DNA from: an uncultured Bacillales bacterium
GTDB taxonomy: Bacteria > Bacillota_I > Bacilli_A > RF39 > UBA660
Assembly: GCA_947164795.1 (NCBI GenBank)
Contig: CAMUXV010000001.1
Span: forward strand, 20,580-84,579
Length of the DNA: 64,000 nucleotides
Direction: 5' to 3'
The notes beneath the pieces are model-generated. The model did not search any database. It saw only the letters and a program-made list of their open reading frames with translations, and was not told where the DNA came from. Position numbers and translations under genes: made by a program. Shown piece after piece: positions 13,130-53,706 of the stretch. Each line of letters starts with the position of its first letter. The stretch's first letter is position 1.

Positions 13130-13296
13130 TATATGGATATCTCGTAAGAGATTTCTTTTTTTAGTGCTATTATTGAATTATTTTATTTTTATAATAAGTT
13201 TGTCAACAAGATTGTTGATAGACTAAATTATTCTGTAATTATATGGAAAAAAAGCACATATTATGGTATAATATATATAGGTTGAGGGTGATAGCT

Positions 13297-13905
13297 ATGC
13301 TTAATAATAAGCTTGGAATAACTAATGAAGTTGAACTATCTAAAGAAGAAGAGAAAATAACTAAATTAAAAGCGTTAGAGTTATTTGATTCAAAAAAAAT
13401 AGATGAATTTGAAGTTGGTACAACTAATGGATTATGTATGATTCATAAGTTTTTATTTGATGATATTTATGATTTTGCAGGAAAAATTAGAAAAGATAAT
13501 ATTGCTAAGGGTAATTTTAGATTTGCTTCTGCTATGTATTTAGAAGATGTTTTATCTAAAATTGATGAAATGCCACAAGATAGTTTTGAAAATATTATAA
13601 AGAAATATGTGGAAATGAATATAGCACATCCTTTTAGAGAAGGTAATGGCAGAAGTACTCGTATTTGGCTTGATATGATATTAAAAAAAGAAATAGGTAA
13701 AGTTATTGATTGGGGGAGTGTTCCTAAAGATGAATATTTACTTGCTATGGAAAGAAGTCCAGTTAAAGATACTGAGATAATGATTCTTCTTAATAATGCT
13801 TTAACTGATAAAGTTAATGATAGAGAAGTATATATGAAAGGTATTGATGTAAGTTATACATATGAAGGATATAATACATATACAATGGATGAGTTAACTT
13901 GTTAA
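13297..13905 (+). CDS. fic: Fic-family AMPylation protein, class III (C-terminal inhibitory helix)
   Basis: [12 protein letters not shown] Fic motif; C-terminal SYTYEG = S/TxxxE(G/N) inhibitory motif; GAGGGTG RBS before ATG 13297 (ORF track starts 13243). Confidence 0.85.
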
Positions 13906-14011
13906 TAAAACTAAGAAATTTTTTTAGTTTTTTTCTGTTGTAATTATTTCTTGACAGTAGTATTTATTTTGATTATAATAGTAATTACTTATACGAGAGG
14001 AGATATTACAT

Positions 14012-14266: not shown

Positions 14267-14583
14267 AAGGAATATATGTAGATAAAGAAAAACTTTCAAA
14301 TATAAAAAATGAGATAGAAATTGCTTGGCAAAAAATAGATATGATTAATAAGATAATTGAGGAAAGAAAAAAGATAAAATGTAGAGAGGTTGATGCGAAA
14401 TTATTTGTCAAATCAAAACAAGTAATAACAAATCCTTTAGATACTGTTGTTACAACAAGTATTCCAATACAAGAAAGATTTTCAAGATCAAAGAAAAGAT
14501 AAATTAAGGGCTTTAAATAAAGTTCTTTTTTTATTTAGTATTAAATAATATTAATGGATATTCTTAATAGAAGACAAAGGAGG

Positions 14584-14620
14584 ATTAACTTGTTAATCCG
14601 GGTAGCGAAGCGGTTAATAA
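14584..14620. promoter_or_regulatory. conserved palindromic element ATTAACTTGTTAAT + TAGCGAAGCGGTTAATAA (copy A), upstream of clpC-like gene
   Basis: 6-2-6 inverted repeat; 38-nt block ~85% identical to copy at 22647-22684. Confidence 0.45.
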
Positions 14621-14712
14621 TAAATAATTATATAAAAAGTCTTTTTTTCGTGTTTAAATTTAAGTAATTTATGTCATTATATTCATAGAATAGATTATGA
14701 AAGGGGAATATT

Positions 14713-21054: not shown

Positions 21055-22570
21055 ATTACATCCCGCACTTGTATTTTTAATTCTTACGATTGGAATAATG
21101 ATAATTAGTGTTATTGGGAATTTACTTAATTTGGAGGCTAGTTATTTCGTTGTTAATGAATCTACTGGTGATTTAACTAGTCAAGTCGTTACTATTAATA
21201 ACTTATTTAATAGAACAGGACTTCAATATTTAATTAGTAATATGCTTAATAATTTTATATCATTTGCTCCATTAGGTAATTTAATTATTGGACTTCTTGG
21301 TGTTGGAGTTGGATATAAATCGGGATTTTTAAATTCTCTATTTAAAGTAATTGGTGAAAAAGTACCTAGAAAAATTCTTACATTTATAGTAGTCCTTCTT
21401 GGTATTATTTTCTCAATGGTTTATGAGGTTGGATATGTTATATTAATACCTCTTGCAGCGATTCTATTTATGAATTTAGGTAGGCATCCATCAGCAGGAA
21501 TTTGTGCTGCTTTTGGTGGAATTACTTTTGGTTATGGGGCTAATTTTATTGTTAATAGACTTGATAGTGTTTTATTAACTTATTCTAATAAGGCTGCTTT
21601 AGTTCTTGATTCTTCGTATAATATTAATTTATATGGTAATGTAATTTTCACTATTGTTAGTACTTTATTTCTTTCGTATGTTGGAATGGTAATTACAGAA
21701 AAATTTATTATTCCTAAACTTGGTAAATATACTTTTGATGTTGAGGAACCTTCACAAGAGGGAGTGGTTAGTAAGAAAGAAAGAAAAGGTCTTATTATTG
21801 CACTTTTCGGTATATTTTTTGCTATAATTATATTACTTTATTGTATTATAAAGGGGCTTCCTTTTTCGGGTCTTTTACTCGATTTAAAGCAGAGCAGATA
21901 TGTTGACATGTTGTTTGGGGAGGGGTCATATTTTTATAAGGGTTCAGTTGTTATATTTTCATCTTTACTCATATTTGGTTCTTTTATATATGGCATTCGT
22001 ACTAAAATCATTGATGATAATAGAGATTTAGTTGATGGTATGAGTTATTATTTAAAAGATGTTGCATCTCTTTTGGTTCTTATCTTTTTTGCAGCACAGT
22101 TTGTCTTAATATTTAAAGAAACTAATATTGGATTATTTATTGTTGCCTCTTTATCAGAATTACTTAATGATTTAGAGTTATCGGGATTATCTCTAGTTAT
22201 TATTACTTTTTTAGTCGTTGCTGTAAGTTCGTTTTTTGTTCCAATGGCTTCGACAAAGTGGGCAATGTTAAGTCCTACGATTGTTCCTATGTTTATGCAA
22301 GCTAGTATGACTCCTGAATTTGCTGAAGCTGTGTTCAGAGCTGCTGATAGTAGTATGAAAGGACTTACACCGTTATTTAGTTATTTTGTTATATTGATTG
22401 GATTCTTACATATTTATAATAAAAGAAAGAATGACGTCATTACTATTACTGATGCTATGAGTTTAATGGTTCCTTATACAATAGCATTTACAATTGTTTG
22501 GTTTATTATAATACTTGCATTTTATATTATTGGTATACCTATTGGTATAGGAACAGGTATTATGTTATAG
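21032..22570 (+). CDS. AbgT-family transporter (p-aminobenzoyl-glutamate/antimetabolite exporter family)
   Basis: FAPLG..LGVG, LGRHPSAG..FGG, VPMFM...FRAADSS, GIPIGIGTGI blocks align with E. coli AbgT. Confidence 0.8.
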   Translation: MKKKKKIKLHPALVFLILTIGIMIISVIGNLLNLEASYFVVNESTGDLTSQVVTINNLFNRTGLQYLISNMLNNFISFAPLGNLIIGLLGVGVGYKSGFLNSLFKVIGEKVPRKILTFIVVLLGIIFSMVYEVGYVILIPLAAILFMNLGRHPSAGICAAFGGITFGYGANFIVNRLDSVLLTYSNKAALVLDSSYNINLYGNVIFTIVSTLFLSYVGMVITEKFIIPKLGKYTFDVEEPSQEGVVSKKERKGLIIALFGIFFAIIILLYCIIKGLPFSGLLLDLKQSRYVDMLFGEGSYFYKGSVVIFSSLLIFGSFIYGIRTKIIDDNRDLVDGMSYYLKDVASLLVLIFFAAQFVLIFKETNIGLFIVASLSELLNDLELSGLSLVIITFLVVAVSSFFVPMASTKWAMLSPTIVPMFMQASMTPEFAEAVFRAADSSMKGLTPLFSYFVILIGFLHIYNKRKNDVITITDAMSLMVPYTIAFTIVWFIIILAFYIIGIPIGIGTGIML

Positions 22571-22646
22571 GAGATACTTTGTTATCTTCTTTTTTATTTG
22601 GAGTTAAATTTGTTTAATTGATATTTCTACTAGAAGACTTCCGCGG

Positions 22647-22684
22647 ATTAACTTGTTAATCTGTTAGCGATAGCGGTTAATAAA
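22647..22684. promoter_or_regulatory. conserved palindromic element ATTAACTTGTTAAT + TAGCGATAGCGGTTAATAA (copy B), upstream of ychF
   Basis: same 6-2-6 inverted repeat and downstream block as copy A. Confidence 0.45.
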
Positions 22685-22771
22685 CAAAAAATGTAGAAAT
22701 AAACAATGCTATTTATATTTAAAATATAATAATTTAATGTTATAATATGGTAGTAAGAAAGAAGTGATGTT

Positions 22772-31892: not shown

Positions 31893-31960
31893 CTTATACC
31901 TCCAATATAAGTATATTAAATCTTGTACTGTAAATGATAAATTGCTTTACTAGAGTTCAA

Positions 31961-31974
31961 ATTAACTTGTTAAT
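31961..31974. promoter_or_regulatory. third copy of ATTAACTTGTTAAT palindrome (copy C), divergent intergenic region
   Basis: exact 14-mer shared with copies A and B; followed by GCCGCCAAATGCGG hairpin. Confidence 0.4.
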
Positions 31975-32067
31975 TTGATGCCGCCAAATGCGGAAAATAT
32001 CTAGAAAAACAAGCAAAAAATACTTTATCTATGATGAAAAAATTGATATAATAATTTATGTGATTAT

Positions 32068-33219
32068 ATGAAGAAAATATATATGTTTATTGGTACTTTT
32101 ATTATTTTTATTATTTTTATTACAGTAATAGGTTCTTTTATTGTTATGGGGAATACTCCTATTAAAAGAGAGAAAGATATATTTAGTGTGCAAAGTAATA
32201 AAGAGGTTTACTTTAATGTGTATGGATATGACATAGAAAATCCTAATGTTATTATAAATCCCTATGGTAATAGCCCGCTTACCGCTATTGCAATGTTTAC
32301 ATCAAGAGATTATAGTGAAGTATCGATTACTGTAAAAGGTAAATATGATAATGACATCAATTATACTTTTAGTAAAGATAAATATCATTTGATTCCAATA
32401 TATGGATTGTATCCTGACTATAATAATACTATTATTATTAGATGTGAAGGCAGTGAAAAGATTATTAATATTGAAACCAGTTCTTTACCTGAAAATTTTA
32501 CTTATAGTGAAGATATGATAAATGACAATTATTCTTTTTATAATAACGGGTATCCATATGCGATAGATAGTTATGGAGATATTAGATGGTATTTAAATAA
32601 GCATTATTTTGGTAATGTCTCCTTACTTGATAATGGTAATATTGTTGTTGGAAGTGATAAATATAATGATAATGAAAGTACTATTAGTTATTATAGAATG
32701 AACTTGCTTGGTAAAATATATACTGAATATTTACTAAAGAATGGGTATTATGGCTTTAATACCAAATATGAAGATAATATTATTGTTAAAAGTGATAAAT
32801 ATTTAGTAATGGATTTACAAACTGGTAATGTTTTAAATGAATTAGGTAAAGTAGATGATAATGTAGTAATTAATAATGTTTTTGATTTATATAGAGATGC
32901 TGTTAATTATAATCTTTCTAAACCTGTTAAGTATGGAGTATTAAGCGAAACTAAAACTTCAAAGAAAAAAATAGGGTTACTTAAATATTCTAAATATAAA
33001 GGCAATAATATTGATATTGAGATGAATAGTAATAGAATTACTGTTAAAAATAACAGTGATAATAGTGTCTATATTATTTTAGACAAAATATTAGATAAAA
33101 GAATATATAAAGTAGTGGATACAAAATATATTAATTTAGAAGGTTTAAAAGGTAGATATACTATTTATTATAAAATTAATAATAAGATATATAAAACTAA
33201 TTATTATATTGAGGTTTAA
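32068..33219 (+). CDS. secreted Y/N-rich protein, possibly arylsulfotransferase(ASST)-like beta-propeller
   Basis: N-terminal TM/signal; NPYGNSPLTAIAMF resembles ASST N-terminal motif; weak. Confidence 0.35.
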   Translation: MKKIYMFIGTFIIFIIFITVIGSFIVMGNTPIKREKDIFSVQSNKEVYFNVYGYDIENPNVIINPYGNSPLTAIAMFTSRDYSEVSITVKGKYDNDINYTFSKDKYHLIPIYGLYPDYNNTIIIRCEGSEKIINIETSSLPENFTYSEDMINDNYSFYNNGYPYAIDSYGDIRWYLNKHYFGNVSLLDNGNIVVGSDKYNDNESTISYYRMNLLGKIYTEYLLKNGYYGFNTKYEDNIIVKSDKYLVMDLQTGNVLNELGKVDDNVVINNVFDLYRDAVNYNLSKPVKYGVLSETKTSKKKIGLLKYSKYKGNNIDIEMNSNRITVKNNSDNSVYIILDKILDKRIYKVVDTKYINLEGLKGRYTIYYKINNKIYKTNYYIEV

Positions 33220-52254: not shown

Positions 52255-52328
52255 TGGAGCAGGTGATGAGAATCGAACTCACGCAGTCAGCTTGGAAGGC
52301 TGAGGTTCTACCATTAAACTACACCTGC
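52255..52328 (-). tRNA. tRNA-Gly (anticodon UCC)
   Basis: reverse complement GCAGGTG-TAGTTTAATGGTAGAAC-TCAGC-CTTCCAA-GCTGA-...-GTTCGATTC-...-CACCTGCTCCA gives cloverleaf with anticodon loop CUUCCAA. Confidence 0.85.
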
Positions 52329-52483
52329 ATCAGTAGGCATAATTAATGATACTATACTTTTCTTTGTTTGTCAACTGTCTTTCGAGCGTTTTTTGTTAAA
52401 ATTTACATTTTTATCGGTGTTTGTAAGTAAATATACTATTACTATATTGAAATATTTTAAAATAATGTTATAATTAAGTTACA

Positions 52484-52606
52484 TCTTATAAAGAGTGATG
52501 GAGGGACTAGCCCTATGAAGTCACACCAACCTATTAGATTAGGTGGTAATGCTAGATCTATAAGGTAACTTTTTTCTGCTCAAGAGTTATCTTGGGTATT
52601 TTTTAT
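52484..52606 (+). ncRNA. SAM-I (S-box) riboswitch with intrinsic terminator, leader of metK
   Basis: TCTTATAAAGAGTGATGGAGGGACTAGCCCTATGAAGTCACACCAACC matches S-box core (AUCAAGAG.GG.GGAGGGA.UGGCCC.AUGAA.CC.GCAACC); terminator CAAGA-GTTA-TCTTG + T-run. Confidence 0.7.
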
Positions 52607-52680: not shown

Positions 52681-53706
52681 ATGAAATTATATAGTAATGA
52701 AATTGTTTTTAGGGGTCATCCTGATAAGGTATGTGATCAGATTAGTGATGCCTTATTAGATGTATATTTGAAAGGTGATAAAAATAGTAGGTGTGGTATA
52801 GAAGTAGCAGGGGGTAAAGGTAAGATATTTATAACTGGAGAAGTTACTAGTAGTATTATGGTTGATACTGAAAGTATAGTCAAAAGAGTTCTTTCTGATA
52901 TTGGATATAGTACTGATTATGAAATAATTGATAATATTGGTAAACAAAGCTCTGATATTGCTCTTGGTACTAATATGAAAGTAGGAGGGGCTGGAGATAA
53001 TGGTATGATGTTTGGATATGCCTGCAGGGATACTAAAGAATTACTTCCTACTGCTATGGTGATATTACAAAAACTTAGTATGTGGTATGATGAACTTAGA
53101 AAGAAAGATAAGAGATTTTTACCTGATGGTAAAGCACAAATTACTGGGTTATATGATAACTATAATAAACTAATTAAAATTAAGACTTTTACGGTTTGCT
53201 ATCAAAATAGGGAGGATGATAGAGAAAAGACTGATAAGATTATTATGGATAAGTGTAGGTCTATTTGTGGTGAATATGGAATAAATATAGAAAAATTTTT
53301 AATTAATCCGACTGGTAGATTTTATATTGGTGGATTTGAAGGGGATGCTGGTCTTACTGGTAGAAAGATAGTAGTGGATAGTTATCAGTCTTTTGCTCCT
53401 GTTGGAGGAGGTGCTTTTTCAGGAAAGGATCCGTCTAAAGTAGATAGAAGTGGTGCTTATAAAGCTAGAGAGATTGCTAAAAGAATTCTTTTATCTAATG
53501 ATAATTATAAATGGTGCCAGGTACAAATTTCTTATGCTATTGGTAAAGAAAAACCTCTTGCTATTTATATTGAAACGGATAGGGGTAGTATTAAAGTAGA
53601 TGATAGTTTGTATGAAGAATGTAAGCCTAGAATTATTATTAATGATTTAAAATTACTAGATGTCTGCTATGAAGAAAAAGCTAGATTTGGTCATTTTAGA
53701 GATTAA
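52681..53706 (+). CDS. metK: S-adenosylmethionine synthetase (compact, 341 aa)
   Basis: GHPDKVCDQISDALLD, GAGDNGMMFGYA, GGGAFSGKDPSKVDRSGAY signatures. Confidence 0.9.
   Translation: MKLYSNEIVFRGHPDKVCDQISDALLDVYLKGDKNSRCGIEVAGGKGKIFITGEVTSSIMVDTESIVKRVLSDIGYSTDYEIIDNIGKQSSDIALGTNMKVGGAGDNGMMFGYACRDTKELLPTAMVILQKLSMWYDELRKKDKRFLPDGKAQITGLYDNYNKLIKIKTFTVCYQNREDDREKTDKIIMDKCRSICGEYGINIEKFLINPTGRFYIGGFEGDAGLTGRKIVVDSYQSFAPVGGGAFSGKDPSKVDRSGAYKAREIAKRILLSNDNYKWCQVQISYAIGKEKPLAIYIETDRGSIKVDDSLYEECKPRIIINDLKLLDVCYEEKARFGHFRD

Follow-up and report, generated by a model that had tools for sequence, protein, structure and literature searches.

Does an exact 14-nt palindrome that recurs upstream of unrelated genes mark the operator of a regulon, or does it belong to something larger? 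The question arises from a 64-kb stretch of DNA of an uncultured Bacillales bacterium (hereafter, the window), in which ATTAACTTGTTAAT occurs exactly three times, at positions 14584–14597, 22647–22660, and 31961–31974. All three matches are on the forward strand and intergenic, and their number far exceeds the 0.02 ± 0.14 expected from dinucleotide-preserving shuffles (0 of 100 shuffles reached three). The next open reading frame (ORF) starts 93–115 nt downstream of each 14-mer and encodes, respectively, a clpC-like gene (14713), ychF (22772), and an arylsulfotransferase-like gene (32068) that heads the dinB-tex cluster. An earlier sequence-only reading had recorded these three intergenic matches ahead of gene starts, which our counts confirm. 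It had interpreted them as an operator of an undescribed and perhaps stress-linked regulon or, failing that, as a small repeated element, and had suggested a genome-wide motif scan and phylogenetic footprinting upstream of clpC and ychF orthologues. With two mismatches allowed, the motif is found 12 times versus 6.3 expected, which is background only, and a literature search for the 14-mer gave no match.

The similarity of the first two sites (copies A and B; the third is copy C) reaches beyond the 14-mer. As the sequence-only reading had stated, both extend to a longer palindrome (GGATTAACTTGTTAATCC and CGGATTAACTTGTTAATCTG); in copy C, the palindrome is extended by other bases (TCAAATTAAC-TT-GTTAATTTGA). 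Copies A and B also have in common the downstream block TAGCGA(-/T)AGCGGTTAATAA, but the a/t substitution reported within it is in fact a 1-nt indel, and they resemble each other over approximately 30 nt upstream of the 14-mer (TAATGGATATT.CT.A.TAGAAGAC). The assignment of the palindrome to core promoter regions does not stand: the genes downstream have their likely −10 boxes approximately 80–90 nt beyond the 14-mer, which therefore lies outside the core promoters.

These similarities are explained by a unit of approximately 70 nt, whose middle hairpin (H2) has the 14-mer at its apex. The unit has the consensus TAATGGATATTTCTACTAGAAGATTTCCGCGGATTAACTTGTTAATCCGTTAGCGAAGCGGTTAA, followed by 10–20 A-rich bases, and its edges are marked by a sharp onset of conservation at TAATGG and an end after GGTTAA. 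Two subtypes can be distinguished, a CCGCG-type (copy B) and a GGAG-type (copy A). A covariance model built on 26 distinct copies (R1) identifies 30 copies in the sequences searched, which amount to approximately 17 independent loci; the carriers are three or four related metagenome-assembled genomes (MAGs) of 25–28 per cent GC. The MAG CAMODE01 (‘Bacillales’ SRR873609_bin.88) has 10 copies, DFLL01 (UBA3620) has 7, and the window has 3 copies and a remnant. All copies are intergenic, and none overlaps an ORF of at least 90 amino acids.

The family has a narrow range. We scanned 185,579 species genomes with a pattern anchored on features common to copies A, B, and C, and recovered 19 stretches: nine in CAMODE01, seven in DFLL01, one in a rumen ‘Erysipelotrichaceae’ MAG, and two that are chance matches in bacteria of other lineages. 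The element was thus present in only three related MAGs, in scans that rely on exact motifs and could miss diverged relatives. A metagenome scan in which the palindrome was left unspecified retrieved more copies, including some with other middle hairpins, and the viral contigs scanned contained no copies, only chance matches. Many MAG and metagenome contigs break off at a distance of 30–150 nt from a copy, which is what a repeat would be expected to do to an assembly. The fallback interpretation of a small repeated element is thus supported, since whole units of approximately 70 nt occupy approximately 17 independent loci, all intergenic and in only a few related MAGs.

The three adjacent hairpins of the unit were predicted to be H1 (UUCUAnUAGAA, with an outer GGA/UCC pairing), H2 (CGGAUUAAC-UU-GUUAAUCCG), and H3 (UAGC-GAAGCG-GUUA). 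The arms of H2 differ from copy to copy (GAATTAAC/GTTAATTC, GAAGTAAC/GTTACTTC, ATTAGC/GCTAAT, ATTAAT/ATTAAT, GTGAT/ATCAC, and, in copy C, CAAATTAAC/GTTAATTTG), and so does its loop, which is 2, 3, or 5 nt long (TT, AT, CCC, CTTGT, or TCT). Six of the nine H2 pairs are changed on both sides, with 92.6 per cent of cells paired, in an alignment that was guided by the model and leans to it; the H2 variants are plain by eye. Such a level of covariation was reached by none of 500 shuffles, and sliding the partners against each other halves the pairing. In H3, 96.6 per cent of cells are paired and two pairs show double changes, and the outer pairing of H1 is present in 72 per cent of cells; strong covariation is found in H2 only, with little in H1 and H3. 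At one locus (L168), H2 is wholly replaced and the sequences of H1 and H3 are retained. Across all helices, G·U or U·G pairs occupy 74 cells versus 7 for A·C or C·A, and therefore one particular strand is the folded one. Whole-unit folding energies are unremarkable (z-scores of −1.4 to +0.6), copy C excepted. A possible alternative closing helix, CCGC/GCGG, can form in copies of the CCGCG type but not in those of the GGAG type, and shows no covariation.

Within the window, copy A, of the GGAG subtype, occupies positions 14548–14621 of the forward strand (R1; 69.9 bits, E-value = 3.5e-14). Its conserved unit (TAATGG...GCGGTTAA) spans 14552–14617. H2 of copy A (GGATTAAC-TT-GTTAATCC), delimited by the predicted fold and by family covariation, contains the 14-mer and spans 14582–14599; H3 (TAGC-GAAGCG-GTTA), the most sequence-conserved block of the family, spans 14603–14616; and the A-rich tail, which is present in all copies and visible in the information profile downstream of GCGGTT, spans 14617–14640, all on the forward strand. 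A −10-like hexamer, TTAAAT, on the same strand at 14541–14546, 7–8 nt before the ATGG of copy A, is a putative promoter element. Copy B, of the CCGCG subtype, is located between the abgT terminator and the ychF promoter (22611–22684, forward strand; R1, 83.4 bits). Also on the forward strand, its H2, which lies within the R1 match and includes a G·T wobble, occupies 22644–22663 and its H3 occupies 22665–22679, and a ychF promoter-like site is found downstream at 22718–22746. Copy C is the most diverged (31931–32000, forward strand; R1, 25.8 bits, E-value = 0.0025; fold z-score of −2.5). Its H2 spans 31957–31978, and a local hairpin, CCGC-CAAAT-GCGG, at 31981–31993 replaces the usual H3, both on the forward strand. 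The element in the window is positioned between an upstream terminator and a downstream promoter. A proposed orthology of copy C to the copies at L141 and L143 was rejected because the flanking proteins are unrelated. The ORF at 32068 has no visible Shine–Dalgarno sequence and starts approximately 10–20 nt after an extended −10 resembling TGATATAAT (32040–32085), and its mRNA may be leaderless or have a very short leader.

The remnant in the window is a decayed copy on the reverse strand, upstream of the Fic gene (13150–13200), as identified by alignment to L145:2065–2134. It retains a promoter-like TTGACA-15-TAAAAT and the first approximately 16 nt of the element; compared with L145:2065–2134, it has lost approximately 50 nt, namely the remainder of H1 together with H2 and H3, and an R1 search produced no match at 13150–13200. 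We count this decay as a sign of dispensability. A second, inverted copy of a 25-nt motif, TGTTGATAGACTAA(A)TTAT, is found immediately before the Fic start. An invertible promoter segment at this place was considered and rejected, as the alignment reflects merely this second, inverted motif copy. At the other end of the Fic ORF (13243–13905), the last codons contain a near-copy of the 14-mer with one mismatch (GTTAACTTGTTAAT, 13893–13906), which the covariance model does not assign to the family. The L145 and L134 orthologues read GAGTTAGATAGTTAAT here, so that the near-copy was created by five clustered substitutions. It could be due to chance or to a short conversion tract from the nearby element.

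The window has 23–29 per cent GC and a strong GC skew, which is mostly +0.2 to +0.4 and changes sign locally at 48–52 kb, where genes switch strand. It also encodes a SAM-I riboswitch (52483–52566, forward strand; 65 bits) ahead of an ORF at 52681–53706 and, divergent from it, a tRNA-Gly(UCC) (52255–52328, reverse strand). The YchF protein encoded in the window is 87–97 per cent identical to proteins of uncultured gut and rumen Bacilli, and exact protein look-ups for this YchF and for the window protein P0003 returned no match. At the nucleotide level, the window is 82–90 per cent identical to CAMODE01 and DFLL01 and 96 per cent identical to one metagenome contig.

Copies A and B have orthologues at matching sites in relatives of 82–96 per cent nucleotide identity (L133, L134, L136, L145, and L171): copy A upstream of clpC in L134, L145, and L171 (the last one identical), and copy B in L133 and L136. 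In a GCA_019973165.1-type relative with 90 per cent YchF identity (L004–L006), the clpC, abgT-ychF, and DUF6512/arylsulfotransferase pair loci are found in the same order as in the window, but the three intergenic regions, of 87–130 bp, do not contain the motif, although conservation of the promoter and leader sequences further downstream can still be recognised. R1 likewise found no copies in L001–L006 and L175, and the YchF proteins of the syntenic relatives are 90–97 per cent identical to that of the window. Footprinting upstream of clpC and ychF orthologues hence gave a divided answer: the element is kept at 82–96 per cent nucleotide identity but absent in syntenic relatives.

Paralogous copies within a genome are 82–84 per cent identical, whereas orthologous copies in CAMODE01 and DFLL01 are 91–98 per cent identical, and therefore the family expanded before these species split and has not undergone concerted evolution since. 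Orthologous copies are 86–89 per cent identical to those in the window. This places them about equal to or slightly above third codon positions (71–85 per cent) and below the adjacent promoter and leader regions (89–99 per cent).

The neighbouring genes are functionally unrelated, and both orientations of the element relative to them occur. Approximately six loci precede a gene read in the same direction (clpC, ychF, genes for an Fe-hydrogenase and a UvrD-like helicase, and others), five adjoin the 3′ end of a gene that runs towards them (tuf, ybbR, glyA, a short-chain dehydrogenase gene, and a 584-amino-acid gene), and the remaining loci are back to back with genes for Fic, KilA-N, a sigma factor, or unknown proteins. 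Ten loci are oriented with the local GC skew and six against it, which amounts to no replication-strand bias.

Intergenic spots adjoining the element are hot spots of accessory-gene turnover. In L145, inverted copies with their 5′ ends inward bracket a Fic island between dcuC and clpC, the left one being the copy that is decayed in the window, and inverted copies of the same disposition bracket a 2.5-kb accessory island in L128 and L153. The latter island (L128:110–2584, also in L153 and L164) is located between the hydrogenase and glyA-folD genes and encodes a 372-amino-acid protein and two paralogous Tyr-rich, membrane-anchored proteins of approximately 165 amino acids, with no Pfam match; it looks like a module of the toxin-immunity style. 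The interval between Fic and copy A holds three different small ORFs in the window, L134, and L145. The interval between abgT and copy B holds a 218-amino-acid ORF without a Pfam match in L133 (4712–5368), a 441-amino-acid WG-repeat protein in L136 (3450–4775), and no extra gene in the window (22570–22600). The notion that these extra genes by copy B are cargo of the element was rejected, since their presence amounts to simple indels on the upstream side of the terminator, and no second copy bounds them on the far side.

With somewhat better than even confidence, we interpret the family as a lineage-restricted, strand-specific, structured interspersed repeat of approximately 70 nt that acts as folded RNA. 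Its best reading in terms of class is among the small structured intergenic repeats (BOX-, SPRITE-, or REP-like, or ‘mobile/repeat sequence candidates’): there are multiple intergenic copies of the whole unit, orientation and gene association are inconsistent, and the range is narrow. In the scenario that we propose, the element would have multiplied before a small clade of uncultured low-GC Bacilli diversified, in their common ancestor, with copies staying at fixed intergenic positions ever since and diverging slowly or decaying there. Function, if any, would be exerted by the folded single strand, most likely as RNA, and not by a double-stranded operator. Transcription may start from the −10-like box at the 5′ edge or arrive by read-through from neighbours, and transcripts that include the element would gain a stable hairpin module. 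The copy number of approximately 10 or more per genome is low for a selfish repeat and would also be compatible with a family of functional genes.

We hold it possible, if doubtful, that each unit is instead a gene of a sibling small-RNA family, with its own promoter and an RNA product of approximately 70–110 nt, whose invariant H1 and H3 would bind a dedicated protein or pair with targets and whose terminator-less copies would provide clpC, ychF, and other genes with a structured 5′ leader. When 17 independent loci are aligned at their conserved 5′ edge, approximately 9 of them have, in a fixed register, a hexamer of the form T-A-n-n-n-T (TAAAAT, TTAAAT, TAAACT, or TAAGAT) that ends 6–8 nt before the AATGG edge, and a strong promoter-like sequence, TTGATA-16-TAAACT/TAAGAT, is directly upstream of three copies. 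On the grounds of this register and these promoters, it is likely but unproven that the unit brings along a promoter from which it is transcribed; against it, no conserved −35 was found among the loci examined. At the 3′ side, a hairpin follows the A-rich tail by 6–14 nt in approximately 11 of 18 loci, and a canonical terminator occurs within 60 nt on the element strand in 6–7 of the 18, yet for half of the copies, the three of the window among them, the element strand has no terminator. The strand-specific G·U pairs, the retention of positions across species of 82–90 per cent nucleotide identity, and the preserved H1 and H3 sequences beside the replaced H2 of L168 would all suit small-RNA genes. 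On the other hand, one copy decayed without replacement, conservation does not rise above that of neighbouring promoters, and a search of the window for targets complementary to the H3 loop found none. Firmicutes do have sibling small RNAs, such as LhrC of Listeria and the csRNAs of streptococci, encoded as several near-identical short units, each in its own intergenic region, and some copies of our element, being convergent with a gene and sharing its terminator, are arranged in the same way. The element differs from them in that its promoter or regulator motif is only putative, it has no C-rich or obvious seed, and many copies are without a terminator. Copies also point outward from accessory islands that contain Fic, KilA-N, and toxin-like genes. 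A more ambitious version, in which promoter-carrying sibling genes recruit a dedicated partner through H1 and H3 and thereby place these islands together with clpC, ychF, and dinB-tex under one RNA circuit, seems to us unlikely.

The hairpins might alternatively act at the level of DNA, as single-stranded structures recognised in trans by an HUH/Y1-type transposase or recombinase in the manner of REP/RAYT or IS200/IS605 systems, with inverted pairs of copies able to carry accessory genes between them. We judge this improbable. A strand-specific hairpin with compensatory changes would be expected of such an element, and GCGAAGC, which is present in it, is an unusually stable DNA mini-hairpin. 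H2 variants common to non-orthologous copies look like subfamilies. Two inverted pairs bracket islands (Fic in L145, and the genes for the 372-amino-acid and the two small proteins in L128), and the whole Fic segment that is bounded by two copies is missing between dcuC and clpC in L005; these observations keep a transposon-like reading alive. Nevertheless, no transposase-like or Y1/HUH domain was detected in 30 neighbouring proteins, and no such gene is located beside any copy examined. Terminal inverted repeats are absent (the ends match at 12 of 25 positions), as is any target-site duplication above the control (flanking direct repeats average 6.25 nt versus 5.5 nt for shuffled pairs), which speaks against a MITE. 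The orientation of copies shows no GC-skew bias, presence/absence polymorphism with clean ends was not found, most copies are solitary, and none is on a viral contig. Given the lack of a mobilising enzyme, terminal repeats, and target duplications, the term ‘mobile’ rests on analogy, and the way in which copies spread in the past would at most be suggested by it.

The operator reading, in which a dimeric regulator binds the palindrome and controls a stress regulon of clpC, ychF, and the 31.9-kb operon, is very improbable and is in our view largely refuted. An exact palindrome upstream of three genes in one window speaks for it, and approximately 10–20 sites per genome would be a plausible regulon size. 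However, the two half-sites of H2 vary together so that their pairing is retained, and the spacer between them ranges in length from 2 to 5 nt, which a dimeric DNA-binding protein would not tolerate, and therefore the reading is unsupported. Moreover, the conserved unit is asymmetric and, at approximately 70 nt, five times as long as the palindrome; its pairing is strand-asymmetric, as the excess of G·U over A·C pairs indicates, which is not required of a duplex operator; and the palindrome is placed outside the core promoters, approximately 80–90 nt ahead of the −10 boxes. At five loci, the adjacent gene runs towards the element, the neighbours are functionally unrelated, and the element is absent at orthologous promoters of close relatives that are otherwise conserved. 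The resemblance to CIRCE/HrcA and CtsR boxes does not go beyond the presence of an inverted repeat ahead of a gene for a Clp ATPase: such operators keep sequence and spacing, whereas the element keeps pairing only, and its palindrome is part of a larger asymmetric unit at unrelated genes.

Least credible of all is a leaderless small-protein gene of 16 codons (ATG GAT ATT ... CGT TAG, MDISTRRFPRINLLIR) starting at the conserved ATGG. In its favour, 13 of 17 loci retain the ATG, which coincides with the predicted transcription start; many CCGCG-type copies can be read through to a TAG within H3; and the frame survives a 3-nt insertion in L149. However, frameshifts or early stops in at least seven loci or orthologues (frame-breaking 1-nt indels in L129, L139, L144/L173, L130, and L156, and stops at codon 3 of L138 and codon 6 of both L134 and L145) show that the unit is not coding, and copy B has no ATG and codons 2–5 vary at all positions. 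GGAG-type copies have a Shine–Dalgarno-like GGAGG that is followed, 6 nt on, by a TTG in the loop of H2 (14580–14665 in the window), and the resulting frames are short (25 codons in copy A) and reach the clpC promoter region. An upstream ORF in these copies was rejected, as the predicted peptides, once past the element, are alike in neither length nor sequence.

Known RNA classes do not account for the family either. The window was scanned with Rfam 15, and no match was found at the copies at the gathering threshold; around copies A and B, only noise appeared with E-values up to 10. ARAGORN called no tRNA at any copy. The sequence GGGTAGCGAAGCGGTTAA (14600–14617 in the window and in other GGAG-type copies) resembles what we take to be the 5′ D-arm region of Bacillus tRNA-Tyr (GGGGUAGCGAAGUGGCUAAACGC), and a kinship with this tRNA was rejected, as tRNA finders make no call and no model supports it. 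A riboswitch or other cis-regulatory leader was dismissed because a location in 5′ untranslated regions of functionally related genes is not constant.

The preferred reading, of a structured repeat acting as folded RNA, invites comparison with REP sequences and BIMEs and with IS200/IS605 ends. Like these, the element is an imperfect palindrome with strand-specific folding, is intergenic and often by terminators, and, as in REP/BIME, inverted pairs can flank a gene. It differs in that no RAYT/TnpA gene is seen at the loci, the three hairpins are different from one another, and copies are far fewer. REP sequences have a GTAG at the foot of the hairpin and occur mainly in Proteobacteria; the conserved NTAG of our element is 12–13 nt from the hairpin, and its host belongs to the Bacillota.

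Parallels also come from pneumococcal BOX, RUP, and SPRITE, which have a narrow range and slow turnover and are often co-transcribed with their neighbours (Croucher et al. 2011, PMC3049150). Like our element, they are short, intergenic, present in multiple copies, and predicted to be extensively structured, with restriction to a narrow clade, absence in near relatives, and old insertions of slow turnover (PMC3049150). In contrast to our element's relation to these shared traits, the element has no similarity to them in sequence, consists of one fixed 70-nt unit rather than modular boxA/B/C, has approximately 10–20 copies per genome rather than more than 100, possibly has its own −10 box, and lacks the terminal repeats of RUP, an IS630-type MITE. 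Mobile/repeat sequence candidates are defined operationally by multiple copies per genome, inconsistent orientation to genes, and a hairpin as RNA or DNA (Narunsky et al. 2024, PMC11109978), and all three features are found in our element. Unlike those candidates (PMC11109978), it has no transposase, integrase, or nuclease genes at the loci examined and is not among the Rfam 15 motifs.

For the biology of this lineage, one false lead is removed, in that nothing supports a new stress regulon at clpC and ychF. If the units were small-RNA genes after all, they would offer a compact model of sibling small RNAs in organisms not yet grown, and an RNA circuit built from them would be an undescribed class of regulatory RNA in uncultured gut Bacilli. 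On our preferred interpretation, the palindrome belongs to an apparently undescribed family of small structured repeats in poorly known, low-GC, uncultured gut and rumen Bacilli. Repeats of this type break metagenomic assemblies and can add hairpins to neighbouring transcripts, and the copies mark intergenic spots of accessory-gene variation.
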